Below are positions 19,072 to 42,786 of a DNA stretch of 51,643 nt, in pieces. The translations under genes were made by a program, and so were the position numbers. Each line of letters starts with the position of its first letter. The stretch's first letter is position 1. Below the pieces are notes generated by a model. It was not told the origin of the DNA. It saw only the letters and a program-made list of their open reading frames with translations, and made no database searches. Origin of the DNA: Verrucomicrobiales bacterium (lineage in GTDB: Bacteria; Verrucomicrobiota; Verrucomicrobiia; Verrucomicrobiales; SLCJ01); contig JBJTQJ010000110.1 of NCBI GenBank assembly GCA_046075565.1, positions 1 to 51,643 of the forward strand, read 5' to 3'.

Positions 19072-22000
19072 TCACGCCTGACGCCGCATCTTGCGCGCAA
19101 AGGCGGCGGTGATGGCCGGGATGGCGAGCAGCAAGATCAACCAGAGGTAGGCTTTCTTGGACGTGCCACGTTCCATGCCGATGCTCAAGGCCAGCGGCTG
19201 GCTGCCATCGACTTGCACGCCGCGCGTGAAGGTGTGGCGCGCGCCCTGTTCTGGCAGAGCGATGTCGAGACTGCGCAGGGTTGGCGTGGCGGCGGCTTGC
19301 TGGCTGACGATCCGGTCGGCGAGTCGATTGAGCGTGCTCGTCTCCTCATAGGTGTTTCCTTCCATGAGTTGTTGGAATTGGCGCGGATCGTATTCACCGC
19401 GGCCTTGCAGGAGCGGGTTCTCCCTGGCGGCCTTCTCGAATTGTTCGTTGGCCACCGCGCCGCTCGTTCCGGCATTATCGAGCAGCAAACGCTGGCGCAT
19501 TGTATTCAATCCCACCACCGCTTGTTGGGTCTGCAGGTTGCGCAATTGAACCCGCGCATCCTCGTTCGACGGTGCATCAAGCGCACCATTGGCGGCGGCT
19601 TGATTGAAGAACGATTTGGCCATCTCGGTTTTCCCTTCGGCAAGCCAGCGGTTGCCTTCGGCGAGATCGCTTGATCCCCGCGCGGACTGGCTTTTCTTTT
19701 TCTCCACAACCGAACCAAGATACGAATCCAGGTTGAAGATTGGTGTTCCTGCTCCCGCTTGTTCGCGGAGGATGAGCCCTCCCTTGTGCTCCGCGAGGCG
19801 GTGACCTTCCGGCAGCACGAGATCCCATTCCACATCTTCGATGGGCACATCGAGCGCCGGACCCGACAGATCGATTTGTTTTCCAGTTTTTCCGCGGCTG
19901 ACATACGAGAAAGCAACCGCGATCGGTTCGTTGGCATCAGGTCCGGGAAGCACGTGGAAAAGTATCGCCTTGCCTTCGCGGGCGAGAGCGGTGTTCTGTT
20001 CGTTCACGGTCAGCGAGAGGAGTTCGCTGCCTTCCGGCAGGGTCAGACGCAGGCTCGATTTTTCACCGGCGCGCACGGCCAAATCCACCCGCGTCAGCGA
20101 GTGCCCGTGGGGCGAAAGCACGGAGGACAACTTCGCTTTTTGCACGCGCAGCTTCAGCACTTCGGCCATTTCCTGGCGGCGCAGGGAGATGCCAAGTGGT
20201 GTTTCCGGCTCAACGGCCCGGAAACAAAGCGCGGGCGCGCCGCTGTCGGTTGGATCGACAAGCTCCGATGGCACGCCGGGCCAATCGGCACGGTGCCAGC
20301 CTTTGCCCGGCGCGGGCGCGTCGAGTTCGATGCGACCGGTGGAGCGAACAGCGAGGAACGAAGACGACTGGCGCGCATCCGGCAAAGTGGCCATGGCGAT
20401 ATCGAGTTTGGAGGTGTCTCCGCCGAGTTTGCGTTGGAAGCGGATTTCCACGGGGATCTCGCCGAGCACGCCGCGTTGAAAGCGCAGTTCCCACAAGTCC
20501 TGCTCACCAGCCACGGGCAGAAGATCCGCCACGGCCTCGCCGGTGGCGCGCGCGCTGCGCGCATCCTCGGCATCGAGATTCGGCAAACGGATGCGAGTCG
20601 AACGGATGGCGGCATTCTCGACCTTCAGGCGCAGGGCGATGCGTCCGCGCATCTGACCGTCGCGCAGCGTCAGATCCTGCAACAAACGCGCGGTCACCCA
20701 CGGTTCGAGTTTCTCGATGGCCAGCGACAATTTCCAATCCCCTTGCAGCAAGCGGAAAACCAGCGCGCCGGGGCGGCCGGGTTTGGCATCTTCTCCGGCT
20801 TCCTGGGTCACATGCTGGCGGGCGAGCGGTCGCACCTGGATGCCGCGATCGGGCACGAGGGTGAGACGACCGCTCTGGCGGGTGGCTTCACGCAAGGCAA
20901 GCCGCGGCACATCCCAGTTGGCACGCGCTCCGGGGAATGGACCGGACAAAGTGATCGCGAATTTCGCCGCGCCGATAGTGCGTCCGTTCAGATGAAGCGT
21001 GACCACGCGGTCCTTGCCCACGCCGGCTTCCGTCCAATGGGAAAGCACATCACCACTGGCAGCTTCCACCTCGAGGCCTTCCGGCACGGCGAAGCTCAAT
21101 TGGAAGATTCCCGCCCGAGTGATCGCGCATTCGATGTCGGCCGCGATGGTCAGCCGCTCCTCGCCGATGGAGACCGTCTGCCTAACAACCGATTTGATCT
21201 CCGGTTGCACCGGCATCAGTTTGACCTCGATGGAGGAATCGACACCGGTGTGGCGGAAAACCTTCTGCGGGAGAATCGTCGCTTTGCCGCGTCCGAGGAG
21301 TTCGCGATCAAAGTCCCCGCCATCCATATCAGCCATCTTCTTCGGCGTTATGGTGTCGGTCTGGGCGTCGCCTCCGGGTGCGATGCCCGTCATGCCGACT
21401 TCTCCCGCCGCGCCTTCGACGTGCAACGGCTCGATATTGGCGGTGTAGGGAAGATCGCCAGTCGGACGTTGGGTGATCACCTCGATAAGGAAGGCGCTGC
21501 TCTGCGCAGGGGCGAAGACCAGCGACAGGGCGCGGGCCGAAGGATCAAATTTCCAATCGGCAAGTCCAGGCGCACGCACGTCACCGACGGTGAATTTTTC
21601 CGGCACCCGCAGGACAAGCTTGCCCACCTGTCCTTGCGTCGGGCGAATGTTGATACGATGGCGTCCGTTGATGATGCCGGCCGATGGAACGTAAAGGTTC
21701 GACACTTCGGCGAAGAAACGGAGCGGCTCGGCGGAAGCGTCGCGCGGGCGCGGGGAGAGCACCACCGATGCAGCGGCGGGCGCGAGCACGAGGGCATCGC
21801 CACTCTGGCCTGCGGGAAGTCCGGCGATGGGCGTGGCCTTGATGGACGACACGCTCGCCGCCATCCAATCGGGACGCTCAAAGACCACCCGGAGAGTATT
21901 CACCGGGGCGTTGGGAGTGGGCAATGCGATCTCGAGAGCTTTTTCCTGGGCGCGGAATTCATAACGGAACGACAGATTCAGTCGCCCGTCGCGTTCGGCC

Positions 22001-25000
22001 ACGGCGAGATAATCGGCATCGGCTTGGGCCGAAGCGCGGGCGATACGCACGCCGTCGCCTTCGAAGGCGGAGAGCGTGTGCCCGCCATTCAGCACCTTTA
22101 CGGTTTCGCCGGTTTTCGCTTCCACGACCATTTTTACGCTGGCCACACCACGTTCACCACGCACGAGCCATTCTTGTTCCACCGAGGAGAGATCGGCGGC
22201 ACGGAGGTTCGTCGCAGAGAAACCGAGGCAGGCCAAGAGAACGAGCGCGGCGGCCGGGGGAACCGGCGGAGCGGAAGGGGAAAACAATTTCTTGAGTATC
22301 GGTAGCATGGAAAAGAAACCGAGGAGAGCGAGGAGCAGGAACCACAATGGGGTGCCGTAGGCCGTGCTCAAAACGGCGGCTCCTAACAAAGCCCAGCCAA
22401 CTGGAGCGAAAAGACCCGACAATCCGCCCCGGCGGTGGCGAGCCAACCACGCGGCGGCCAGCAGTAGCAGGGCGGAAAATCCGAGCGCGATAGATGTCCA
22501 TGGAATGGAAGCTTGCCAAGCAGGCATGTTCCGCACCTCCACGATCATGCCTTCCCCGGCCGGAACAACGGGCGCGGCGAATTGCAGGCGGAAGGAATCG
22601 TTTGCGGACACGCCGCGCGGGCTACTGAGGGCGAGTGCCAGGGCCCACAAGATGGCGAAGGCTCCGATGACTGCCCCCATCCAAGGAAGGCGCCCTCCTA
22701 CAAGGAGCGCGAGGACGATCAGCAGTCCCATAAACGCGCTTCCAAGCAGCAACCGCTTCCAGGGCAAAGAGCTCAGGAAGGATCGTTGATCCGGTCCGAC
22801 GGGCAGAATATTTCCTCCGGCGGGAGCGAGTGCGCGCCCCCGGTCGGCGGAGATTTCCCATTCACCCATGGCGGTCGGCACCTCGGCCACCGGAGCAATG
22901 AGCCGGGCTTTCCCTCCGCTGACGGCGGTTTGTCCGTAACGCAAGGTCACTTCCACCGGCGTGACGGTATCGGTGGTAGGCGGCAAAGGAATCAACGTTG
23001 TCTGGCCATCGAAGCGGGCGTTCACGGGTTGGCCGGCGGCGCGTGCTTCCCAGAGGGTCGCACCTTCGGGCAATTTCAGGCGCAACGAACCTTGGCCGCG
23101 CGATTTCACGAACCAACGGGCTTCGGTGACGATTTGTCCGTCCCAAGCCACCGTGCTGGCAAGGCGGGCGAAATCGATCATGCTGGCGGCGGTTTCGGCC
23201 GACTCGAAACTTTCGATGTTCATCTCGATGGCGAACGGGCGTTCGTTGTATTGGAAAATGGCCAACGAGGGCGAGGAACTGAGGAATTGTTTGTCGGGCG
23301 GCAGCTCGCCCGCTTCGAGACGGAGAAGATTGCCTTCCGCTTTCGTGACGGCATGGCGAACCTGGTATGGGCTAACAATCTGCACGACACCACGTTCGCC
23401 CTGCACACCGAGCGGACGGATGCGGCCCGGTTGCAAGGTCGCACCGCGTGCGGGCAGTGGTTGCTCGAACGTTAAAAGCACCGTCGAAGCGCCGAGCGAT
23501 GGTTTGTGCAGCGAGACGATGATCTCGCCGCCTTTCCGCCGCCATGCGCGCACGCCTTGTCCGTCGATCAATAGATTTCCCGAGCCCTCCGGCACTTCGA
23601 AGCGCCATTCCGATGATGGTGAACCGGCGGTAAAGAAGTTCACCAATACGCTCACCGTTTCCATACCCTCGCGCAGGGTGTGAAGGTGGAACAAATCCGC
23701 CTGCACGTTTTGGCCGAGGGCGGTCACATCAAAGCGGGCTTTCCAAACGCCATCACGGATGCGGTAGGCGTGTTGCAGGCCGGGAGTCTGGCGCGGGAAA
23801 TAGGCGGGTGGAGTTTCGGCAAGTCCTTCGAGTTTGCCCGGCGTTGGTCGGAATCCCGGAGTGGCCGCGACACCGACAAATCCGCGCGTCGTCTTCACAC
23901 CGGGGAACCCGAGCACGGGAAGGTCCCACGCTCCAGCGGAGGCGGCCGTGTTCTTTTCAAAACGCAAGCTGATCAACTGACGGCCAATGACCGCATCGCC
24001 GAAAAGGATACGCAGGCGCCGTTGGCCGGAACCAGTCTCGCCACCCAGAACATGGTCGGCCACCTGCGCGCCCGCGATGGATGCGACCGAATGATTGGCG
24101 GGCACGAGGATTTCCCATTCGCGGATGGGCGCGTCGCGCACCTCCAATTCGAGTTCAGCCGAGAGCACGCGATCGGTCTCGCCCATTTCATGCACGAGCA
24201 CTTGGTTCACGGAAAGCTCCGGCACCATGGCGTCCACGCCTAAGGTCATTGAATAGTCCGGAATCGGAAAACGATAGACGAGCACCTGGCGGGCATTGGT
24301 GGCCGCGGCTTCGCCTGTCCATTGTTCCGGGGATAGCTGCATGAGTCCTTGCGGATCGCGTGCTTCCACCCGGGTGGCTCCGATGGATGTCACGCGCAGG
24401 GCACCCGCATGGCGGGTTTCTCCGGTCACGGGTGTCACGCGCAAAGGCGAGGCCGTCGCCGGCAAGGCTCCCAAGGGCAGTTGGCTTTGCACCCGCAGGG
24501 CGGACGCTTGGCGGATGGCACGCGCGAACTTCACATTGAGCACGCGGGATTTATCAGGTCCATCCGCGACATTCCACGCCGCGACATCTTCGCCAAAGAC
24601 AGAGAGGATTTCGCCCGCGCCATCGAGACGGAAGTCGAGTTCGCGGAATTCCCCTTGCAAGGCGCGGATGGAAAAGGTCGTGTCCTGTTTGGCCACCGCG
24701 GCGGTGACAATCATGTCCACGCTGGCGATGGAGTTGAGATAAAGTTTGCCATCTTTGGCCAGACCGGCCTCGCGCCAGCGAGGGGCGAATCGACCGTCAG
24801 GTGGCAGGAAAGCGGTGAACGCACCCCCTTCGGCCACCGGCAAAACGGTGGATGCCGGATCAAACTCGATGGTCGCTCCAAGGCCGCGCAGCAGCACCGG
24901 CATGACGACGGATCCCGCGAGGGTGAAATCCGGGCCATTCCATGCGCCACTGGCACCGACAGCAGCGGCGATGGGGACACGGAGCGGATAATCGCGTGCT

Positions 25001-25863
25001 TCGGAAAAGACCAGACGGGTTTTGCCATCAACCACACGAACCCGCACGGCCGGGTCGTTTGGCAAACCTAACAACACCACATTTCCCGTGAGCAGGACAA
25101 TTTCCGCATCCGCCCGGCGCACACGTGCGGTTCCGATCCATTCGCCTTCAAAAACTTTGCCGTCGGGAGAGAGGGCGAGATCAACACGAGCGTCGGCCCA
25201 ATCCACGACGGACTCTCCACCGGGAGGTGAAACACGGATGCGCAGGCGCGGTTGGCCGGTGGCGACGAAGGATTTCGTATTGCCATCGTTTTTCGTTTCC
25301 ATGAGCCCGTCGCTTTCGAGCACGCGCGCGTCAACGCCTTCGCCGGGGCGGAGAATGACCCGCCCGGCGAATCCGGCCGCTCCGGCGTCGCCGGCGAGAA
25401 CGGGAGAAACTTCACCCGGCAGCGCGGGGACATTTGTTTTCATCGTGATCGAAATCTCGAAGCCCGCGGGGGCGGGTTGGTTGGGGGCAAGTGGTTGGAA
25501 GCGGACGTCGAGCCAGCGTTTTCCACCAGCGCCCGGTTCCGAACGGGTTGCCCAGCCGGCGATGCCGTTACCATCCACCGAGATTACATAGCCATCCCCG
25601 TGCAGGGCGAGGCTCACGAGATCGGGTTTGCCTTGCAAGACCCTTCCTTTCACGCTCAGTGCTTGGGCGATGTTTTCAGCCTGCGGCACCAAGATTGAAT
25701 CCACTTCCACTGCATACAAAAAGGCCGGTTCCTTCGGCACGCGGCCGGCATCGACCACGAGCAGACCAGCTTCGGGAACTTGCACGTTTTGGGCCGAGAG
25801 CGGAGAGAATGGAGTGGCGAGGGCGAAGAAGATTCCGGCAAGGAGGAATGGATGCGTTTTCAT
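19072..25863 (-). CDS. Giant (~2263 aa) repeat-containing membrane protein of unknown function
   Basis: Signal peptide from ATG 25863 (MKTHPFLLAGIFFALATPFSPLSA-Q); repeated beta-rich modules, central multi-TM bundle, C-terminal TM with basic tail. The ORF-track extension to 26109 runs through a REP element. Confidence 0.85.
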   Translation of the reverse strand: MKTHPFLLAGIFFALATPFSPLSAQNVQVPEAGLLVVDAGRVPKEPAFLYAVEVDSILVPQAENIAQALSVKGRVLQGKPDLVSLALHGDGYVISVDGNGIAGWATRSEPGAGGKRWLDVRFQPLAPNQPAPAGFEISITMKTNVPALPGEVSPVLAGDAGAAGFAGRVILRPGEGVDARVLESDGLMETKNDGNTKSFVATGQPRLRIRVSPPGGESVVDWADARVDLALSPDGKVFEGEWIGTARVRRADAEIVLLTGNVVLLGLPNDPAVRVRVVDGKTRLVFSEARDYPLRVPIAAAVGASGAWNGPDFTLAGSVVMPVLLRGLGATIEFDPASTVLPVAEGGAFTAFLPPDGRFAPRWREAGLAKDGKLYLNSIASVDMIVTAAVAKQDTTFSIRALQGEFRELDFRLDGAGEILSVFGEDVAAWNVADGPDKSRVLNVKFARAIRQASALRVQSQLPLGALPATASPLRVTPVTGETRHAGALRVTSIGATRVEARDPQGLMQLSPEQWTGEAAATNARQVLVYRFPIPDYSMTLGVDAMVPELSVNQVLVHEMGETDRVLSAELELEVRDAPIREWEILVPANHSVASIAGAQVADHVLGGETGSGQRRLRILFGDAVIGRQLISLRFEKNTAASAGAWDLPVLGFPGVKTTRGFVGVAATPGFRPTPGKLEGLAETPPAYFPRQTPGLQHAYRIRDGVWKARFDVTALGQNVQADLFHLHTLREGMETVSVLVNFFTAGSPSSEWRFEVPEGSGNLLIDGQGVRAWRRKGGEIIVSLHKPSLGASTVLLTFEQPLPARGATLQPGRIRPLGVQGERGVVQIVSPYQVRHAVTKAEGNLLRLEAGELPPDKQFLSSSPSLAIFQYNERPFAIEMNIESFESAETAASMIDFARLASTVAWDGQIVTEARWFVKSRGQGSLRLKLPEGATLWEARAAGQPVNARFDGQTTLIPLPPTTDTVTPVEVTLRYGQTAVSGGKARLIAPVAEVPTAMGEWEISADRGRALAPAGGNILPVGPDQRSFLSSLPWKRLLLGSAFMGLLIVLALLVGGRLPWMGAVIGAFAILWALALALSSPRGVSANDSFRLQFAAPVVPAGEGMIVEVRNMPAWQASIPWTSIALGFSALLLLAAAWLARHRRGGLSGLFAPVGWALLGAAVLSTAYGTPLWFLLLALLGFFSMLPILKKLFSPSAPPVPPAAALVLLACLGFSATNLRAADLSSVEQEWLVRGERGVASVKMVVEAKTGETVKVLNGGHTLSAFEGDGVRIARASAQADADYLAVAERDGRLNLSFRYEFRAQEKALEIALPTPNAPVNTLRVVFERPDWMAASVSSIKATPIAGLPAGQSGDALVLAPAAASVVLSPRPRDASAEPLRFFAEVSNLYVPSAGIINGRHRINIRPTQGQVGKLVLRVPEKFTVGDVRAPGLADWKFDPSARALSLVFAPAQSSAFLIEVITQRPTGDLPYTANIEPLHVEGAAGEVGMTGIAPGGDAQTDTITPKKMADMDGGDFDRELLGRGKATILPQKVFRHTGVDSSIEVKLMPVQPEIKSVVRQTVSIGEERLTIAADIECAITRAGIFQLSFAVPEGLEVEAASGDVLSHWTEAGVGKDRVVTLHLNGRTIGAAKFAITLSGPFPGARANWDVPRLALREATRQSGRLTLVPDRGIQVRPLARQHVTQEAGEDAKPGRPGALVFRLLQGDWKLSLAIEKLEPWVTARLLQDLTLRDGQMRGRIALRLKVENAAIRSTRIRLPNLDAEDARSARATGEAVADLLPVAGEQDLWELRFQRGVLGEIPVEIRFQRKLGGDTSKLDIAMATLPDARQSSSFLAVRSTGRIELDAPAPGKGWHRADWPGVPSELVDPTDSGAPALCFRAVEPETPLGISLRRQEMAEVLKLRVQKAKLSSVLSPHGHSLTRVDLAVRAGEKSSLRLTLPEGSELLSLTVNEQNTALAREGKAILFHVLPGPDANEPIAVAFSYVSRGKTGKQIDLSGPALDVPIEDVEWDLVLPEGHRLAEHKGGLILREQAGAGTPIFNLDSYLGSVVEKKKSQSARGSSDLAEGNRWLAEGKTEMAKSFFNQAAANGALDAPSNEDARVQLRNLQTQQAVVGLNTMRQRLLLDNAGTSGAVANEQFEKAARENPLLQGRGEYDPRQFQQLMEGNTYEETSTLNRLADRIVSQQAAATPTLRSLDIALPEQGARHTFTRGVQVDGSQPLALSIGMERGTSKKAYLWLILLLAIPAITAAFARKMRRQA

Positions 25864-26189: not shown

Positions 26190-29100
26190 TCATCGGCGCT
26201 GGCGGACTTGCTCCCACATGGCGAGCAAGGTGGCGACGCGCGAATCGCCGGGGAAAGCCGAGCGCAGTTTGACTTGCACGTTGACGAGAGAAGCCGGGTC
26301 CACGCTTTGACCGATGGGCGATCCGCGGAGGGATTCGGCGAGCAAACCGGCGGCGGCGGCGAGTTGCATGGAAGGAGCGGCTTGGTCGAGCGCGGGAGTG
26401 GACGGGTCATAGGGAATGGTCCAGTTGCGTTCGACCATACGACCGGTGGTCGTGTCTTGGAAGCGCACCGCCACATCACCAATGTCGCCGTGTCCGTCGG
26501 CGCGCATGCGCACTTGATAGAGGGCGTTTCCTTGTTCGGCGGCGGCGAGTTCGGCGGCATCCACGCTGTCGTCGCGGAAGTCTTCTTCGTTGAGCAGGTG
26601 TTTTTCGAAACCGAAGAGCTGGTAGGCTTCGACCCGTTCGGGATTGAATCGCACCTGGACTTTCACGTTGCGCGCGGCCGGGCGGAAGGCACCGGCGAGT
26701 TGTTTGGCGACCGAATTCTCGCCTTCGGCATCAAGCACGAGATATCGTCCGTCGCCGCGGCGGGTCATGGCTTCGAGCACGTTGTCGGCGAGGTCGGCCG
26801 TCCCGACTCCACAGGCGTCGAAGGCGATGCGCTGACGGCGGAGCGCCTCGACGCGGGCGCCGAGGGCTTCCGGATCGATTTGCCCGAGGTTGGCCGCGCC
26901 ATCGGTGAAGAGAACGACCCGATTCTGCGCACCGGGTTTGGCCTGACGGGTCGCCACTTCGGAGGCGAGATCAAAAGCGGCTTCGAGATTCGTGCCACCT
27001 TGGGGCGGGGAGTTGCGGATGAGTGCCGGAACTTTGGCGGCCTGGTCTCCGCTGATGCGGTCGGCGAGCAAGTGCGGTTCGCGGGCGAAGCCGATGACCG
27101 TGAGGGTGTCGTCTTTTCCTAACAACCCGGCAAGTTCACCGAGGGCGCGTTCCATGGCCTCGACGCGGTCGGGACGTTCCATGGAACCGGATTGATCGAC
27201 GAGCAGAACGAGAGAGAGCGGCTGGCCTTGGGCGCGTCCATCGGCAGCAGTGCGCACCCCGATGCGCACGAGATTGCGTCCCGGCACGAACGGTTGGCCG
27301 GATTGCTGGATGACAGCCGACACGGCCTCGCCGCGGGCGGGCATGGCATCGCCGTAGTCCATGGCATTGACATAGTCCTCGGCGCGCACCGATTCAGGTG
27401 GCACGGGAGCGCCGCCTAACAAAGCGCGCGCACCAAGCTGGAACGAGGCATCGGAGACGTTCAATGAGAAGGTGGAAACCGGCTCGGCGTCCGTGAGCTT
27501 GTTCTCCATGGTCGGAGCGGCTTGCTGCTGCTCAGGCGCGGGTGATTTTTCCTGCGATTTGGGTTTTTCTGGTTCGGCGGCGAAGGGATCGGCAGCGGCC
27601 TCCTCCTGCAGGGACGAGAAGGGATCGCCGGCGGAATCGTCCGGCCCGGAGGCGAAGGGATCCACATCCGCACCGGATTTCTTCTCACCTTTCTCACCTT
27701 CGATTTCAAGTTTCCCGGCAAGTTCCCCTCCACCACCGGCCGGAGCATCCGCGGACGGCGCTGTTTCCTCCAAGCGATCTTGGAAGAGGCGCCCGACGAC
27801 CGGGACCTCGCCCATTTGTGCCGAGGCGGCAAGATCGAACCTCGAGACATTCTCGCGCACCGCACCGCCGACCGAGTTGGGCAACTCCGGTGGATCGTAC
27901 TCGGTGGGGAAAACCATCGTGTTGCCGAAGGAATCGACGCGTTCTTCGAAATCCGTCGGGGTCGGGGGGGTGGCAGGGAAAAATGTTCCGGCGGCGATGC
28001 CGCCTGACTGGTTCATGGACTGCGGCTCGATTTCGGAAACCACACCAACATCGCCGGGTTTCAACTCGCGGACGACCTCGACCTTTGCCACATCTTCGCG
28101 CAGGCTGAGTTCGCCGGGCTTCTCATTTTTGCCTGACAAAATTGAGTCAATTTGGCCACGGCTGACGGGAGCATCTCCGGAGCGACGCCCATTGGTGACG
28201 CCGTTAATTGGTTCTCCCATGTTTGTGAAGCCTTCGAACGAGAGGCTGCCATTCCTCGCCACGGTGCCACCGCCGTTGCTGTTGCCATCGGAGAGCTCAA
28301 CGCTGCCCGAACCAGTCTTTTTGAAGGCGGATTCCGCATCTTTGTCTTTTCCTTCCGCCAGATCGGAGGTGCCAAACCACGTATCCTGACCACTCCGGGC
28401 TTTCCTGTTTTCGTCGGCGACCGTCAAGTCATAGTCGAGTTCCTCGTTGTTCTTCTGGCGGATTTCGAGATGCTTGGTTGCGATGGCGACCTGCTGGGGC
28501 TTCAACTCTCCGGCGACATTGATGCTGCCACTATTGTCGGCCACCAACGGCGCGGGGGGCGGCGCAGGCTCTGGCAATGGTTGGGCGAACGCCACGGCGG
28601 GCGAAGACGGTGCGCCGGGAGGCGAAGCGGCGACTTCACTTCTATCCTCTGTCTGTCCCAAACCAAATCGGATTGTCTCGCCAGAACTGCTACCAGTTTC
28701 AGCCAGTCTACTATAGTGCGCCGCGCTCTGAGGGCCCGCCTCGTTAGCGGCCAGCGCGCCGCTAACGTCTTTCGTCGTGCTGCGAAACAGGTCGGCGGGC
28801 GTTTCTTTGGCGAGGGCGACCATTTGCTCATCGCTTTCGCGCGGAGCTTCGGATTTCGTCACCTTGGCGGAGTAGCCAGGTCGACCGGATGAGGCGGAGA
28901 AGAACAAACTGCTGAAAACAACAAGCCCGAAAACCATGCAGGCGACATAAAGAAGATTACGGGAATCGAATCGCCGTTTCTTCCGGGCGGGCATGGCCAT
29001 GGCCTGCGACGCAGGCATCGGTGCCCCAAGGCCGAGCAGGAGTTTGCCGCGGCGTTCGGGTTCCATTTTCCAGATGTCTTCCGCGCCACCTCGGGTGGCT

Positions 29101-29276
29101 TCACCGAGCAAGCCGTGTACGGCGCGAATGCGGCGGGCGAAAGCGGCGAGTTCCGGCGACTCGGAGAGCAGGCGGTCGATTTCGGCGCGTTCGAAGGCGG
29201 AGGCTTCGCCGAGAACGCAGGCGACCACCCGGGCTTCGAGGGTCGGGTCGTTCCATGGTTCAAGCGGTGGGTTCAT
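26190..29276 (-). CDS. Anti-sigma factor / TM / YfbK-like von Willebrand factor A fusion protein
   Basis: N-terminal ASD-like helices (LEARVVACVLGEASAFERAEIDRLL), TM (LLYVACMVFGLVVFSSLFF), long linker, vWF_A N-domain (VSTFSLNVSDASF, VRAEDYVNAMDYG), MIDAS DQSGS/GGTN/FTDG, DUF3520-like C-domain (ARNVKVQVRFNP...EDFRDDSVDAAEL). Confidence 0.88.
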   Translation of the reverse strand: MNPPLEPWNDPTLEARVVACVLGEASAFERAEIDRLLSESPELAAFARRIRAVHGLLGEATRGGAEDIWKMEPERRGKLLLGLGAPMPASQAMAMPARKKRRFDSRNLLYVACMVFGLVVFSSLFFSASSGRPGYSAKVTKSEAPRESDEQMVALAKETPADLFRSTTKDVSGALAANEAGPQSAAHYSRLAETGSSSGETIRFGLGQTEDRSEVAASPPGAPSSPAVAFAQPLPEPAPPPAPLVADNSGSINVAGELKPQQVAIATKHLEIRQKNNEELDYDLTVADENRKARSGQDTWFGTSDLAEGKDKDAESAFKKTGSGSVELSDGNSNGGGTVARNGSLSFEGFTNMGEPINGVTNGRRSGDAPVSRGQIDSILSGKNEKPGELSLREDVAKVEVVRELKPGDVGVVSEIEPQSMNQSGGIAAGTFFPATPPTPTDFEERVDSFGNTMVFPTEYDPPELPNSVGGAVRENVSRFDLAASAQMGEVPVVGRLFQDRLEETAPSADAPAGGGGELAGKLEIEGEKGEKKSGADVDPFASGPDDSAGDPFSSLQEEAAADPFAAEPEKPKSQEKSPAPEQQQAAPTMENKLTDAEPVSTFSLNVSDASFQLGARALLGGAPVPPESVRAEDYVNAMDYGDAMPARGEAVSAVIQQSGQPFVPGRNLVRIGVRTAADGRAQGQPLSLVLLVDQSGSMERPDRVEAMERALGELAGLLGKDDTLTVIGFAREPHLLADRISGDQAAKVPALIRNSPPQGGTNLEAAFDLASEVATRQAKPGAQNRVVLFTDGAANLGQIDPEALGARVEALRRQRIAFDACGVGTADLADNVLEAMTRRGDGRYLVLDAEGENSVAKQLAGAFRPAARNVKVQVRFNPERVEAYQLFGFEKHLLNEEDFRDDSVDAAELAAAEQGNALYQVRMRADGHGDIGDVAVRFQDTTTGRMVERNWTIPYDPSTPALDQAAPSMQLAAAAGLLAESLRGSPIGQSVDPASLVNVQVKLRSAFPGDSRVATLLAMWEQVRQRR

Positions 29277-29303: not shown

Positions 29304-29873
29304 TTAGGCGCGGTCGATGCCGACCTGGCGGAGGCTTTGGGCGAGGGACTTGAGTAGGTGGTGGACTTTGTAGCCGACATTCCCGATGCTGAGGCCGGTG
29401 GTAGCGGCGATGGCGGCGTAGCTTTGTTGCTGGCGGTATTTCAAATCGATGAGGCGGGCGTCGTCGGGGTCGAGTTCGGAAAGGAGGAGGCGGAGGGTGC
29501 CGATGGCTTCGTGGCGGCCGAGTTCTTCATCCGGTGCGGCCTGGGGGTGGGGTTCGGATTTTCCGGCGTCCTCCGCTAAAACCTCGCGGGCTTGGTCGCG
29601 GTGTTCGTTATAGGCGAGATTGCGCACGCAACGGTAGAGCCAGGCGCGGGGGTTGCGCACTCCTTCCCATTCCCGGTGCAGGCGGAGAAACGCCTCCTGC
29701 ACGACCTCCTCGGCCACGGCCCGGCGGCCGAGCAGCCCGAAGGCATACCGCAACAATGGTCCCTCCTCCGCCTCAAACAGCGCGGGAAGGTCGGGCGCGG
29801 CGGATTCGGACATGCGGGCGGCGGGCGCGGGTTGGGTCGAGGAAACCGGCATGGAGTGGGCTTCTATAGACAA
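29304..29873 (-). CDS. ECF RNA polymerase sigma factor
   Basis: AEEVVQEAFLRL, PRAWLYRCVRN, SYAAIAATTGLSIGNVGYKVH. True start may be ATG 29852 or 29813. Confidence 0.92.
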   Translation of the reverse strand: MSIEAHSMPVSSTQPAPAARMSESAAPDLPALFEAEEGPLLRYAFGLLGRRAVAEEVVQEAFLRLHREWEGVRNPRAWLYRCVRNLAYNEHRDQAREVLAEDAGKSEPHPQAAPDEELGRHEAIGTLRLLLSELDPDDARLIDLKYRQQQSYAAIAATTGLSIGNVGYKVHHLLKSLAQSLRQVGIDRA

Positions 29874-30042
29874 GACACCGTGGATGGGGATTTCTTGGAA
29901 AAAAATCGTATTTTCTTTTCAGATAAACGAAATCGGCTCCAGAAGCCCCTTGGAGGCCAAAAATCCCCCAAAAAATGCCAAAATCCTCGGGCAGGATGCT
30001 GAAACCGGTTGACATATACCCAAAAATCCGGGAAAAACAAAA

Positions 30043-38765: not shown

Positions 38766-41700
38766 TTAATAGTCAGCCCGTTTCATCACCATGAGCAGAG
38801 TTTTCCAGCCAACCGGATTCTTGGGACCGAAACCACCGGCTTCGACGAACAGATAATCCGCGCCACCGATGGTTTTGGGAATCATCTTCAGCGCGGCGCG
38901 ATTGTTGATGTCGATGAGGGCGTCCCCGGACCAGAGCAGCAGCGGGGAGTCCGAGCTGCCATCGGCTTTGAGATCCAAATCTTGGAACGGAGCGCGGCCA
39001 GCGTTGACCTTTTTCCCATCGGGTTGGAATTCCTCCATGGTGCGGACGACATCGGCGAGCTTCCACTTGCCGGGAATGGCGGGATTGGCGACGAATTTGC
39101 CGTCGAAGAGGAACGGCGGGTTTTCCTGAACTTCGTCGCCGACCGGAGCCGGGTCGTTGCGGCTCTGCCATTCCGTGCTGAGCAGCGGGGTGAAGAGCGC
39201 GGACTTGCGCAGGACTGCAGCGTCGAGGGGCGGAAGCGCGCGTTCCTCCAGCCACAGGCTAAAGATGCCTTGCGGGACGGGCGGCATCTGGACGATGGCG
39301 CGGTCGCCGTAGCGGAGGAAGGTGATTGCGGAGATGGTCACCGGCCCTTTGGCGAAGTCCTCGGTGAATTCCTTGGTGATCCATGCGCCGCGGATGGTGT
39401 CGCCGGCGCGGCGGCCGAGACCCTCCTTGCTCTCCGCGAGGGCTTTGCCGTTGATGTAAAGCTTGAAGCCATCGCCCGCGCCAACGCCTTGGCCGCGATC
39501 AACACGCAGGCGGTAGATGTGGCCGGGCTTGAGAGCGGGGAGCTCGAATTTCTGGGTGACGAGCAGCACTTCGTTTTCCCACAACGTTTTCGGTTTGCTC
39601 GTCCAGAAGTTGTCATCACGCGTGCTCCCGCGGTGGTTGGTATCGAGCTGGCCTTTGAATTGGCCGATGGGCATGGCGCCGAGTTTCCAACCGACCTTCG
39701 CGGGCTCGAAGCCGGGGGCATACCAGTTTTCAATACCCGGGGGCATGGTGACGGGACGGTAGCGCCAGGGCGATTTGTCGTAGGCCTGTTTCTCCGCTGG
39801 ATCAAAAGAGTGGTAGTGCCACTTGGCTTCGGAAAGTTTACCGAATTCGTTCCAATCGTAGTCGTGCACACCAACCTTCTGATAGAGGCTGACCAGACCG
39901 TCGATGGAGTTGGTGACAACACCATTCTGATTGGGTTTTTCCAGTTCGTTGAAAATCCTTTGCCGGTTTTCCGCTATGTATTGGTAGATCAACTTCTCGC
40001 GGATGATCGGCTTGATGGTTTCCTGGAGCTTCGGCCCGAAGCTTTCAGGGTTCGCCGCGAGGAAGACCTTGTCATGCGGAAGCGGATCATCCGGGTGTTG
40101 TTTCTTCGAAAGTTCGAAAAGGACATCGTAACCACCGGGCACGCTGGCAAGGGTTTCCGCGAGGACATCGATGGTCTCCTTGCGGTGGTCGGCCATGTTC
40201 TGGCCACCCTGCCAAGTCGAGGGACCCTCGTAGTCGGAGTAGCTGAAGCCGAGAGCCTTCAGGGCGACATCGCGAACGGCGGGCGTGGCATTGGGGAGAT
40301 TGCCGCGGAGCATGTAGAGCGGCCCCATGGTGGTGCTCTGACGCGGGGTTTTCTGAACGAACTCGCCAAACGCGGGCAGGACCTTCACATAGCAACGCTC
40401 ATCGATGGCGATGGTGGCGAGTGCTTGGAGCGCGCCATTCTGGAGCCACTGCTCCGGGTGTGCCAGGTAGGAAATGAGCAGATCCACATGGGGGACGATC
40501 ATGTCCACGCTTCCTTTGCCAACGATGGCGAGGCAGGCATCCTTCACGAACCATGATTCGGCATCGTCATTCAGCCGCTCGATGGCGTAGGCAAACATAC
40601 GCCTGGAGAAATCGTCATCGGGTTGCATGATCCGCACGGAGGCGCGAAGCCCAGCGTAGCGGACGCGGGGATCGGGGTGACGGGCGAATTCCTCAAGCAG
40701 GTGCAATCGGGGCTGCGGCCCCGGTTTCGGGAACATATAATCGGCAGTGAGGCCGGTGGCCATGTTCGCGATCATGTTGCGAATCAGGAATTGCGGATGG
40801 CGGATGTGCAGCCGGAAGTCGTCGTCGCTGAGTTCTTTCGCGTTGAGCCCGATGATGAACGGCTTGGCGGAGTGTTTGGTCAGGATTTCCCCGGAGAGGT
40901 CGAGGAATTTCCCATCCTTGTCGGGAACGGAGTCAGTGGAGACGAAGATGTCATCGGCTTCATTGCCCCATGGTCTGGCGGGGAGCGTGTAGCTTTTGGA
41001 AAACTTCGACGGCGGCGCGCCGGTAATGCGCAGGGTTTTGCGCGGGAAGGTATAGGCCCATGGGAAGAGCGCACCCCATTCGAGGTCGTCGTAACCCGCG
41101 CCGCCGAGGATGCCGAAGGAACCGTCGAAGCGGCGGGACAGGTCGTAGTGCCACTTGCGGTGATCCATGAACTCACGGTGCTGGAGGCGGTCTTTCTCCG
41201 CGAGCAACTGGATGGAGCCGCTGCGCCAGATCTCGCCGATGCCACCACCGGTGTGACCATGGAGCATGAAGGTGGTGGTGTAGAAGCTGGTCTTGGCGGA
41301 GTTGTCGCGCGCCTTCGCATAGATCGATTTCTCGCCTTCGGGGGTGAGCGAGGCGGCGGCAGCCATGGCGAAGGCGAGGTTGCCGTGTTTACCATTATCG
41401 ACGAAAGAGGTCTCCGGGCGATCGTCGCCATAGGGGTTGATACCGCGCCCGGCATAGCGGAAGAAATGGACGAGGGTGCGGTTGAGAAGGCTCTCATCAA
41501 CCTCCACACCGCATTGTTTGGCGAGCAAGAGGAAGGTGACCACGGCCGTTCCGCCAGCGTTGAGGTGGCCGTTGCCGTAGCCGAGCTTGACCACGCCGCC
41601 CCGGCCTGCCCAAGCATCAAGGTATTCGCCCTTTTTCGCAGCCGCGACCCAGCTTTCGATGACCGGTAGGGCAACGGGATCGCCGGTGCGGAGATAGTAT

Positions 41701-42347
41701 TCGCAGAGCGGAATACCGCCGAAGCCGATGTGCCAGGCATAACCATTGTGTTTCTTGGGATCGATCAAGTGCACCCATGCCTTGACGGGCGCGAGGTCTT
41801 TCTCCTCGCCGGTGGAAAGCAAGAACAGCATACCGGTGTCGGCGAAACCCTTGTTCGAGCCGGGTTTGGAAATGTAGTCGGCGAAGCCGCGAACGATCTT
41901 CTCGGACTTCGGGCAATCAAGCGGCCATGTCTTGCTGTAGGACCCGAGCACGGGGATTTTCACCACGATGGGTTCCGCCACGTCCTTGATGGCAAATTTC
42001 AGAACACCATCGGCAGCTTCGGCGTCGGCGAGGATCTTGCCGAGCTGGATACGGGGATCGATATCCTTGAGGCTCTGGCCGTTGATCGAGGTGATGACCT
42101 GGCCTTTTTTCAGGCCGGCGGCTTCGGCGGGTGAGCCGGGCTCGATCGTGCCCGCGACCATGGTGAAGGCGGGCTGATGAAGCTCCATCGCCATGCCGAC
42201 CGGGCCGAAGCGCTCAATGACGTTTACGGTTTTCTCCGGCGATGGCGCGGTGGAAAAAAGCGGGGTTTCCTTGTAAAAGGATTCGGCCGCCAGAACCGGC
42301 AGGCAGACAAGGCGCAGGCCAAGTAGAATCAGCAGTGTCTTTTTCAT
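38766..42347 (-). CDS. Large secreted protein with PDZ-like, DUF6288-like helical and HEAT-like domains
   Basis: Signal peptide from ATG 42347; PDZ-like PGSPAEAAGLKKGQVITSING; LGSYSKTWPLDCPKSEKI, LCEYYLRTGD, HGHTG, WHYDLSRRFDGSF motifs that I associate with DUF6288 proteins. Confidence 0.7.
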   Translation of the reverse strand: MKKTLLILLGLRLVCLPVLAAESFYKETPLFSTAPSPEKTVNVIERFGPVGMAMELHQPAFTMVAGTIEPGSPAEAAGLKKGQVITSINGQSLKDIDPRIQLGKILADAEAADGVLKFAIKDVAEPIVVKIPVLGSYSKTWPLDCPKSEKIVRGFADYISKPGSNKGFADTGMLFLLSTGEEKDLAPVKAWVHLIDPKKHNGYAWHIGFGGIPLCEYYLRTGDPVALPVIESWVAAAKKGEYLDAWAGRGGVVKLGYGNGHLNAGGTAVVTFLLLAKQCGVEVDESLLNRTLVHFFRYAGRGINPYGDDRPETSFVDNGKHGNLAFAMAAAASLTPEGEKSIYAKARDNSAKTSFYTTTFMLHGHTGGGIGEIWRSGSIQLLAEKDRLQHREFMDHRKWHYDLSRRFDGSFGILGGAGYDDLEWGALFPWAYTFPRKTLRITGAPPSKFSKSYTLPARPWGNEADDIFVSTDSVPDKDGKFLDLSGEILTKHSAKPFIIGLNAKELSDDDFRLHIRHPQFLIRNMIANMATGLTADYMFPKPGPQPRLHLLEEFARHPDPRVRYAGLRASVRIMQPDDDFSRRMFAYAIERLNDDAESWFVKDACLAIVGKGSVDMIVPHVDLLISYLAHPEQWLQNGALQALATIAIDERCYVKVLPAFGEFVQKTPRQSTTMGPLYMLRGNLPNATPAVRDVALKALGFSYSDYEGPSTWQGGQNMADHRKETIDVLAETLASVPGGYDVLFELSKKQHPDDPLPHDKVFLAANPESFGPKLQETIKPIIREKLIYQYIAENRQRIFNELEKPNQNGVVTNSIDGLVSLYQKVGVHDYDWNEFGKLSEAKWHYHSFDPAEKQAYDKSPWRYRPVTMPPGIENWYAPGFEPAKVGWKLGAMPIGQFKGQLDTNHRGSTRDDNFWTSKPKTLWENEVLLVTQKFELPALKPGHIYRLRVDRGQGVGAGDGFKLYINGKALAESKEGLGRRAGDTIRGAWITKEFTEDFAKGPVTISAITFLRYGDRAIVQMPPVPQGIFSLWLEERALPPLDAAVLRKSALFTPLLSTEWQSRNDPAPVGDEVQENPPFLFDGKFVANPAIPGKWKLADVVRTMEEFQPDGKKVNAGRAPFQDLDLKADGSSDSPLLLWSGDALIDINNRAALKMIPKTIGGADYLFVEAGGFGPKNPVGWKTLLMVMKRADY

Positions 42348-42786
42348 AGGATTTGGGAACCCTACATCATTCATCAGGAGTCCGCTGATTGAAAGCTCTA
42401 TAAAATTGCTTTTGACGGGAGGCTCACGAAAGAGCCCATGGGAGGGAGTCTTCGCTGCGCAGCGTCAACCCAAGCAGGACCGCAGCCGGGAATAGCAGTG
42501 GAAACCAGGAATCCCAAGCATTCCGCCAAGTTCAGGAGGCATTTCAAGCGGCAGGACGGAAAATGATGCCCAAAGGAAGAATCAAGGCTCCCGACCTGCT
42601 CTCCCGGCCTCGGTGGGTGTGCCAGATTGCTGTTCCGGCAAACCCACGGTGATCAATCACATCTCGATACGAGCAGTCCGATTCCGTGCGTCGGTAACCA
42701 AGTCGGTGTTCTGTTTGAGAACCCTGATTACGCAAGCCATTCTGCTGGCGATGAAGCTACGGAGGAGCCCTCCACCCATACCCAGT

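Follow-up and report, generated by a model that had tools for sequence, protein, structure and literature searches.

Secretin-derived motifs in the stalk of a verrucomicrobial anti-sigma factor suggest a self-mimicking envelope sensor

Pairs of an extracytoplasmic function (ECF) sigma factor and an anti-sigma factor are the commonest envelope signalling devices of bacteria, and for most of their groups the signal is unknown. In E. coli, sigma-E is controlled by RseA, a single-pass anti-sigma factor with a periplasmic part, and DegS is activated by short peptides of unassembled outer-membrane proteins. FecR-type anti-sigma factors bind the STN signalling domain (secretin/TonB N-terminal) of TonB-dependent transducers. 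The Psp response and the Cpx system, in which CpxP is titrated by misfolded pilus subunits, are envelope stress systems that sense mis-assembled secretins or pilus parts, Cpx through competition for an inhibitor. In plants, NLR proteins with integrated decoys are sensors that have repeatedly gained copies of host-protein fragments, and repeated lineage-specific capture is their signature. Here we describe an ECF anti-sigma factor of a Verrucomicrobiales bacterium whose periplasmic stalk carries motifs of an Amuc_1098-type secretin; Akkermansia, which is of medical interest, has Amuc_1098 as its pilus secretin. Its gene lies in a stretch of 51,643 nucleotides (assembly GCA_046075565.1, contig JBJTQJ010000110.1, positions 1 to 51,643 of the forward strand), which was analysed as a whole and is called the window.

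The region had been picked out in an earlier note on this DNA as a shuffled mosaic of secretin peptides that serves as a bait or decoy. By analogy with known systems we tentatively propose, at somewhat less than an even chance, that the stalk array is a self-mimic, which shows secretin recognition motifs and would couple the biogenesis of an envelope machine to the release of the sigma factor.

Descent of the stalk from a pilus secretin

The anti-sigma protein has a predicted cytoplasmic N-domain, one transmembrane helix, a long stalk and a VWA head. Its genome is called G000, with C90, C52 and C115 among the contigs; other G numbers are genomes of relatives. Residues 240-520 were compared by BLASTP with 36,727 open reading frames (ORFs) of G000, namely all stop-to-stop ORFs of at least 60 residues. 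Besides the protein itself, only two Amuc_1098-like secretins, encoded on C90 and C52, were matched (E-values 1.2e-11 and 1.3e-7; next best 0.35), and a wider query, residues 130-600, again matched these two secretins only. Alignment of the stalk with the C90 secretin gave a long collinear segment pair (E 5e-14) and then a second collinear one. With a profile of 81 secretins (79 database matches and the two own sequences), HMMER found four local domains in the anti-sigma protein. An ungapped 10-residue dot-plot with the profile gave 12 windows, ten of them at a family-wise p <= 0.02 in 300 shuffles and five above every shuffle (p<0.004), and 0 windows exceeded the 90th percentile of the shuffles in the VWA half of the same protein, which served as negative control. 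The NCBIfam model NF042912 (Amuc_1098_fam) matches residues 256-386 (E 3.7e-10). The secretin matches are above chance, as the BLASTP result limited to own secretins, the significant windows and the NF042912 match agree. These comparisons show that the stalk array originated from a type IV pilus secretin of Amuc_1098 type, namely from its C-terminal domain, and that it keeps about nine short conserved motifs, some 130 residues, between drifting, acidic, low-complexity spacers.

A chance likeness of low-complexity peptides might be suspected from motif D1, which is rich in proline and threonine, and from ARSGQ, which is only a 5-mer. This explanation is already refuted by the five windows with shuffle-based p <0.004, by genome-wide matches limited to secretins, by clean negative controls (the VWA half and 33 random long ORFs) and by the match of an independent curated model.

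All nine peptides listed in the earlier note were found in the translation of 26190..29276 on the reverse strand, with coordinates within 1 nt: QVAIATKHLEIRQKNNEELDYD (residues 262-283), ARSGQ (293-297), FEGFTNMGEPI (347-357), VTNGRRSGD..IDSILS (360-381), LREDVAKVEVVRE (392-404), VGVVSEIEPQ (410-419), FPATPPTPTDFEER (433-446), FPTEYDPPELPNSVGG (456-471) and MGEVPVVGRLFQ (488-499). The secretin counterparts that the note had given match the consensus of an alignment of 80 family members. ARSGQ has to be dropped as a secretin piece, being too short for testing and unconserved in three orthologs.

In a native secretin the motifs run A (QV.I.TK..E), B (T.G.RSGD..ID.IL), C1 (A.IEIIRE), C2 (PTEYEPPELPNSVG), D1 (FPVTPATPT.FE), D2 (GVTLE.EP), E (FEGF.NYG.PI), F1 (GGL.REDV) and F2 (GD.P..GRLF). 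The order in the anti-sigma protein is A-E-B-C1-D2-D1-C2-F1-F2 against the native A-B-C1-C2-D1-D2-E-F, with successive profile positions 487, 499, 729, 566, 577, (787), 642, 701, 685, 654, 783 and 803. The windows off order are E (729), D2 (701), D1 (685) and a non-significant second reading of LREDV (787). The block D2-D1-C2 is the reverse of the native C2-D1-D2, and the HMMER domain order shows the D1/C2 swap independently, as domain 2 (profile 665-699) precedes domain 3 (profile 651-688). The mosaic is therefore milder than had been claimed: E does precede B, and D1 and D2 precede C2, but eight of the 12 windows form a collinear chain. Likewise, the non-collinear short matches that had been expected from BLASTP or a dot-plot were found, but the majority of matches are collinear, which comes near to the simple decayed secretin domain that the note had named as its own refutation.

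The individual motifs are kept to different degrees (Table 1). Motif A matches the first strand of the secretin domain (E17-41 of the C90 model), and motif E shares 8 of 11 residues with the C90 secretin (737-747). The first half of motif B scores 18.6 bits (p<0.004) and the second half reaches p 0.19, while F1 and F2 score 17.0 bits (p 0.017) and 24.1 bits (p<0.004). Island LSLREDVAKVEVVREL is the best conserved, with 11 of 14 columns invariant among four orthologs. It scores 16.3 bits as C1 (p 0.02) and 14.7 bits as F1 (p 0.11), and its core LREDVAKVEVVRE is best read as C1, the F1 reading being non-significant. From the alignment with the close relative P0085, VGVVSEIEPQ..GG may be the decayed original C2, in which case the well-kept C2 would be a later second copy.

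Table 1. Features of the operon and of the anti-sigma protein (coordinates of the window; residues of the anti-sigma protein)
Feature	Residues	Coordinates	Strand	Details
Secretin-derived motif array	259-499	27780..28502	(-)	Found by BLASTP, HMMER, profile dot-plot, NF042912
Motif A	259-283	28428..28502	(-)	Profile 487-508; 17.1, 18.1 bits; p 0.013, <0.004
Motif E (FEGFTNMGEPI)	345-358	28203..28244	(-)	Profile 729; 21.6 bits, p<0.004; natively after C, D
Motif B (VTNGRRSGD..IDSILS)	360-381	28134..28199	(-)	Profile 566-586
Island LSLREDVAKVEVVREL	391-405	28062..28106	(-)	Read as C1 (AtieiiRe); weaker second reading F1
Motif D2 (VGVVSEIEPQ)	410-419	28020..28049	(-)	16.6 bits, p 0.02
Motif D1 (FPATPPTPTDFEER)	432-446	27939..27983	(-)	20.2 bits, p<0.004; precedes C2, native order C2 then D1
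Motif C2 (FPTEYDPPELPNSVGG)	456-471	27864..27911	(-)	31.1 bits
Motifs F1 and F2 (VGGAVRENV .. MGEVPVVGRLFQ)	468-500	27777..27875	(-)	HMMER domain 4
Three acidic DPF(A/S) repeats	538-567	27576..27665	(-)	After motif array; two invariant in orthologs
vWF_A, VWA, YfbK_C head	591-1028	26193..27506	(-)	MIDAS-type DQSGS motif
Single transmembrane helix	~108-128	28893..28955	(-)	Preceded by RKKRRF
Anti-sigma factor gene (P0001)		26190..29276	(-)	1028 aa; predicted cytoplasmic N-domain, one transmembrane helix, periplasmic stalk, VWA head
ECF sigma factor gene		29304..29852	(-)	182 aa; ATG at 29852
Third operon gene		19072..25863	(-)	2263-aa signal-peptide protein; same direction, 3' of anti-sigma gene
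Predicted ECF-type promoter of operon		29874..29907	(-)	T-tract, TCCAAG, 15 nt, GTGTC; ends 21 nt before sigma ATG

Every secretin membership test failed, so the array cannot be a channel subunit. PF00263 was unreported at E <= 1 with the whole protein or with the stretch alone, and Pfam gave just a sub-threshold PATR repeat for the stretch alone. NF042912 scores 38.5 bits on the anti-sigma protein against a cut-off of 750, while the own C90 secretin domain reaches 528 bits from its C-terminal half alone. Profile positions 591-641 and 741-782 have no counterpart in the stalk, no profile match was found in the G000 anti-sigma protein before position 484, and a cytoplasmic domain and one transmembrane helix stand in place of the signal peptide and the TPR/N-domains. 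The C90 secretin domain was modelled with AlphaFold2 (AF2) from an 80-sequence alignment, at a mean predicted local distance difference test (pLDDT) of 65 with strands mostly >80. On this model motif A falls on the first strand, B on a low-confidence helix, and C, D, E and F on strand ends and hairpin turns; by our mapping, only about 5 of the 14 strands of the model have even a partial counterpart in the stalk. The earlier judgement that such pieces could not form a secretin barrel agrees with the absent PF00263 match, the 38.5 bits and these few strands, and the comparisons show that the stalk array is no channel subunit.

A smaller fold is another matter. The array could be a folded domain, derived from a secretin and rearranged, in which the motifs are what survives of strands and turns. 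Such a small beta structure would dock to or co-assemble with the secretin ring or another oligomeric machine. It would thereby tether the VWA head at the outer membrane and report the assembled secretin instead of the unassembled form. The motif order is stably inherited across deep divergence, as this explanation would expect. On the C90 model C1 and C2 lie on strand 167-181, D1 and D2 on strand 222-240, and E at the end of strand 246-264, and D1 followed by C2 could make a permuted hairpin; a low-confidence model draws a hairpin at 443-457. Moreover, secretin and Wzc, which are source proteins in relatives, are homo-oligomers, and a copied piece could presumably join the oligomer. However, the spacers vary in length and sequence, with gaps, the composition is acidic and poor in hydrophobic residues (these make up a fraction of 0.24 in residues 255-505, compared with 0.31 for the secretin domain), and AF2 gave no confident fold. 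The model of the whole anti-sigma protein, from an alignment of four orthologs, has a mean pLDDT of 35, with the VWA domain itself <60, and decides neither disorder nor fold. We regard a folded domain as rather unlikely, though it is the alternative to self-mimicry that we take most seriously.

Conservation and capture of envelope-gene pieces in relatives

When 5.8 billion proteins were searched with the stretch, three orthologs came up, which are 48-59% identical to it here, and all other matches were Amuc_1098-type secretins. In the alignment of the four orthologs (residues 250-505), 65 of 129 columns (50%) are invariant in the motif islands and 21 of 127 (16.5%) in the spacers, where the sequences differ in length as well as in residues. 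The islands were set by secretin likeness in G000, not by ortholog conservation. C2 matches the C90 secretin at 14 of 14 residues, but 9 of the 14 codons differ (34/45 nt identical), a pattern that speaks for constraint on the protein sequence and against recent copying of the DNA. Recent gene conversion of C2 in G000 was considered and rejected, with 34/45 nt identical to C90 and 39/45 to C52.

The arrangement of sigma factor, anti-sigma factor and VWA head was found in other genera of the same order. The related secretins are named for Haloferula, Luteolibacter, Rubritalea and Akkermansiaceae, which places the family in Verrucomicrobiota. Ten genome-resolved orthologs were fetched, with ORFs of 1076-1619 aa, one of them partial, and a database query with the N-domain returned 23 proteins, every one with a VWA head. 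These 33 stalks were searched for ten secretin motifs at a threshold set by the maximum of 100 shuffles. At least two motifs were found in 16 stalks, a single motif in seven and none in ten, against four single matches and no case of two or more in 33 random long ORFs of G000.

Several motif sets and orders exist among these proteins, as had been predicted for ortholog linkers. P0001 and its five closest relatives share the order A-E-B-C1-(D2)-D1-C2-(F1)-F2. Five other members have E-B-D1-(C2)-F2-A and two have B-E-N-F2, where N is a motif of the secretin N-terminal TPR region. The remaining orders are D1-C2-F2-N in G003, B-F2-N in G031 and F2-A in G024. By this comparison, the placing of E ahead of B and of D1 ahead of C2 is old and has been inherited, and the groups differ in where A stands and whether N occurs. 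The shared rearranged order spans groups whose N-domains are just ~50-57% identical, and the free shuffle of peptides first imagined gives way to a rearrangement that is old and inherited.

YfbK-like VWA paralogues without the anti-sigma part are common in the order. One of them, a 1084-aa protein without the anti-sigma N-domain (L054, G048:C39), carries a secretin N-region motif (..YFEVARN.TR..F..KI.EGW.MPVP..) and TPR. With this arrangement the secretin N-region seems to have been joined to VWA heads more than once.

Direct copying from own envelope genes is seen in relatives. Secretin N-region makes up 228 residues of the G031 stalk (284 bits against the profile) and 344 residues of the G003 stalk (267 bits). 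Both copies are closest to the secretin encoded in the same genome: identity is 76% for G031, where none of 87 others exceeds 62.7%, and 72.8% for G003, where the next best stays at or below 42.9%. A tree of 88 sequences groups each copy with its own secretin as sister, with support of 0.957 for G031 and 1.0 for G003, and the two copies are 29.5% identical to each other. Nonsynonymous (dN) and synonymous (dS) divergence are 0.16 and 0.75 for the G031 copy; dS is saturated for the G003 copy. In G056, an exact 55-nt copy of the own secretin gene covers motif E and its surroundings, with sharp borders and unrelated flanks. The GC content of this patch is 0.43, near the donor gene (0.42), against 0.50 for the host gene.

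Other envelope proteins have contributed as well. The G048 stalk (L021) matches its own TPR-secretin at 73% identity over 49 residues, an own Omp85 barrel at 43% over 61 residues and an own ShlB/FhaC-type (TpsB) transporter at 35% over 72 residues, besides several matches to giant ORFs. The Omp85 piece includes a GGANNLRGFDYRD stretch, which we take to be the Omp85 loop-6 motif region. Periplasmic parts of Wzc-like co-polymerase kinases were found in G020 (L020), G036 (L016) and G024 (L017), at up to 55% identity over ~215 residues, and the G056 stalk (L019) holds a piece of an own 530-aa protein without known identity. Some pieces, among them the Wzc region, are as large as a domain and may go back to the ancestor of a sub-family, in which case they would not be separate captures. 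Taken together, the alignments show that relatives' stalks have repeatedly received DNA from the own secretin gene and hold pieces of other own envelope proteins. Such repeated copying is the expected pattern for a mimic or bait under selection. Judged from these sequences, the repeated, independent copies of host proteins that characterize integrated decoys are present in relatives, and G000 holds only the old array.

The same data bear on a plainer explanation, in which the array is a decayed fusion remnant without a function of its own. A secretin fragment, captured by an ancestral anti-sigma gene, would sit in a stalk that just spans the periplasm and tolerates decay, duplication, deletion and random insertion, and its apparent conservation would come from occasional gene conversion by the secretin gene. 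The largely collinear windows, the wide range of stalk lengths among these ORFs, the members without any motif, the G000 motifs that do not track the own secretins and the transfer of secretin DNA into a stalk, directly seen in G056, all suit a remnant. Against it, islands are invariant three times as often as spacers, and C2 has kept 14 of 14 residues through nine codon changes. The dN/dS of the G031 copy is ~0.2, and the same rearranged order persists across the deeply diverged groups. The captured pieces are also non-random, since those identified come from envelope-machine proteins and in G000 from secretins alone. We consider a remnant unlikely.

Operon, predicted regulon and proposed mechanism

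The promoter, the sigma gene, the anti-sigma gene and a giant third gene lie in one direction (Table 1). The sigma protein matches Sigma70_r2 (5.4e-15) and Sigma70_r4_2 (1.8e-7) of Pfam, both above cut-offs, and TIGR02937 (sigma70-ECF) at 69.9 bits against a cut-off of 42.9. In all nine of nine fetched orthologs the sigma gene stands immediately 5' of the anti-sigma gene.

In the anti-sigma protein, the top 19-residue Kyte-Doolittle window (2.43) begins at residue 108, in the sole hydrophobic segment. By the positive-inside rule, the N-domain is probably cytoplasmic and the C-terminal part periplasmic. The N-terminus resembles RskA_N below the cut-off (E 0.038, 14.6 bits against 27), and 79% of the columns in its first 106 residues are invariant among the four orthologs. 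After the membrane helix follow about 460 residues of acidic stalk with low hydrophobicity. The head scores above all cut-offs with PF12450 (38.7 bits), PF13519 (58.9), PF00092 (43.8) and PF12034 (81.5); 78% of its columns are invariant in the four-sequence alignment, including the MIDAS-type residues D694, S696, S698, T762 and D792. At the DPF repeats the invariant columns are V538-A542 and D563-A567. DPF motifs also occur in the G003 and G002 stalks, and secretins have one DPF in a glycine-rich linker. As a secretin motif the repeats were rejected, their likeness being below significance in an 8-residue scan.

The third gene, whose start was checked, encodes a 2263-aa protein that gave no match in Pfam and NCBIfam scans. 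Homologues lie directly 3' of the anti-sigma gene in four of five genomes searched (G003, G031, G036 and G056), and in the fifth the gene is split. The C-terminal 900 residues also match a second region of the homologues at 21-25% identity, which suggests that the giant protein carries an internal duplication. The G003 homologue (G003:C62:17167-19872) has one in-frame TGA inside the match, which could be a sequencing error, a pseudogene or a border between two genes. Elsewhere in the window, 38766-42374 on the reverse strand encodes a 1202-aa protein with DUF6288 (369 bits) and an N-terminal PDZ domain, unrelated to the motif array.

The motif T[CT][CT]AA[GTC]-N15-[GC]N[GT]TC was found 5' of the sigma gene by regular expression in nine of ten genomes and by eye in the tenth (L063), with the shared consensus TTTTC[CT]AAG-N15-[GC]NGTC. 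This conserved motif probably acts as the promoter of the sigma factor. When both strands of G000 were scanned with the corresponding position weight matrix (PWM), 19 matches reached at least 17 bits, and the operon promoter was the best of them at 33.4 bits; one strand of 1 Mb of shuffled sequence gave one match at or above 17 bits and 0 at or above 20 bits. Seven matches exceed 21 bits, namely those of the sigma gene, of a 2241-aa protein on C115 that has no family, of three small secreted proteins and of two others. The predicted regulon lies on contigs C115, C43, C109, C25 and C41 and includes several small signal-peptide proteins; five ORFs 3' of promoter matches gave no family in a Pfam scan. 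BLASTP found no homology between the two giant proteins (2263 aa in the window, 2241 aa on C115). From the genome scan, the regulon of the sigma factor is predicted to be small.

Self-mimicry could work as follows. The stalk would show linear motifs that serve in the periplasm for the recognition of secretin subunits, or in relatives those of other trans-envelope machines. The recogniser would be a handling factor, such as a chaperone, a pilotin, a quality-control protease or the assembling oligomer itself. When its occupancy or activity shifts, for example as unassembled secretin builds up, the stalk might be exposed or cut. The anti-sigma factor would then be degraded by regulated proteolysis and the ECF sigma factor freed. 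Once freed, the sigma factor would transcribe the operon that encodes it, the conserved gene for the 2263-aa envelope protein included, together with a few genes for small secreted proteins.

Several observations weigh against self-mimicry. The mechanism is drawn by analogy and names no partner, protease site or signal. Among the 19 matches of at least 17 bits, none lies immediately 5' of an Amuc_1098-like secretin gene (operon-distal promoters being outside the scope of this comparison), so no feedback onto the secretin is seen. Ten of the 33 family members are without a secretin motif, and the G032 and G029 stalks gave no match in their own genomes; secretin mimicry therefore cannot be essential to the core function of the family. 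Part of the island conservation could reflect repeated gene conversion and not purifying selection, and the collinear chain of eight windows would also suit a simple decayed domain. When 14 segments from six genomes were ranked against 88 secretins, the own secretin came first for just four, one of them by a narrow margin. For G000, the own secretins take places between 5th and 83rd of 88 with nine motifs, and the C90 secretin is 70th, 82nd, 2nd and 5th with four segments. The array is close to the family consensus, which together with these poor ranks indicates an old acquisition. Tracking of the own secretins by the G000 motifs was looked for across these nine motifs and four segments and was not found. 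The only feature restricted to a few secretins is the Asp in PTEYDPPELPNSVG, shared with three of the 88, C90 among them.

The stalk could also be an integrated decoy against attack from outside. It would bait foreign proteases, phage proteins or effectors of predators or bacteriocins that recognise envelope machines on their periplasmic face, and an attack on these machines would then set off the ECF response as well. Fragments of own genes for the secretin, Omp85, TpsB and Wzc-like proteins have been captured repeatedly and lineage by lineage, as expected of such a decoy, and these source proteins would be typical surface or trans-envelope targets. Nevertheless, no attacker is known, the bait is periplasmic and not surface-exposed, and the G000 motifs, old and near the consensus, give no hint of an arms race. 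The predicted regulon holds no recognisable defence genes, the five scanned downstream ORFs being without a Pfam family. We regard defence against outside attack as improbable. A broader version, closer to the bait first suggested, takes the whole family as integrated-decoy receptors, with the stalk as an evolving bait array from own secretin, Omp85, TpsB and Wzc. Any agent recognising these machines in the periplasm would then set off the sigma factor too, whether an own quality-control protease or chaperone under assembly stress or a factor from a phage, predator or bacteriocin. This version seems quite unlikely to us as well, although less far-fetched than the purely defensive one.

Comparison with known systems

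The stalk is closest to the Amuc_1098-family secretins (NF042912; PF00263 C-domain), with which it shares QV.I.TK..E, TxGxRSGD..ID.IL, A.IEIIRE, PTEYEPPELPNSVG, FPVTPATPT.FE, FEGF.NYG.PI and GD.P..GRLF. Unlike them, it has no signal peptide or TPR N-region, its motif order is changed and it forms part of an inner-membrane anti-sigma factor. About two thirds of the secretin domain are gone, the long strands of barrel and gate among them. In architecture the C-terminal 440 residues agree with YfbK-like VWA proteins (PF12450, PF00092, PF12034), with MIDAS residues, but here the module is fused behind an anti-sigma N-domain, a transmembrane helix and a motif stalk.

As a signalling device, the system resembles RseA/sigma-E, where an ECF sigma factor is likewise under the control of an anti-sigma factor that crosses the membrane once and has a periplasmic part. 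It differs in that peptides like those of outer-membrane proteins are present in cis, and in its VWA/YfbK_C head and giant partner gene. The Psp and Cpx systems belong to other regulator classes, and neither is known to hold copies of its client protein. FecR is an earlier example of an anti-sigma factor in periplasmic contact with a secretin-like domain; in that case, however, this domain is folded and belongs to the partner, whereas here fragments of a secretin C-domain lie inside the anti-sigma factor.

The ECF sigma/anti-sigma pair is thus of a known kind, but we could not find such a sensor region described. In titles and abstracts on anti-sigma factors, secretins, Amuc_1098, VWA, Verrucomicrobia and mimicry or decoys, no anti-sigma factor with secretin fragments was found. 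Our findings suggest an undescribed, self-mimicking envelope sensor. A sensor region visibly built from the protein family that it possibly monitors gives a concrete hypothesis for a conserved three-gene system. If the mimicry is real, PTEYEPPELP, FEGF.NYG.PI and GD.P..GRLF would mark the sites at which Amuc_1098-type secretins are handled in the periplasm. Compared with the integrated decoys of plant NLR proteins, the family belongs to another kingdom and another sensor class, and no attacker or ligand is known here. Like those decoys it has gained host-protein fragments repeatedly, and it documents a process that is rare in bacteria, in which in-frame patches down to 55 nt and whole domains of own envelope genes are copied into one receptor gene.

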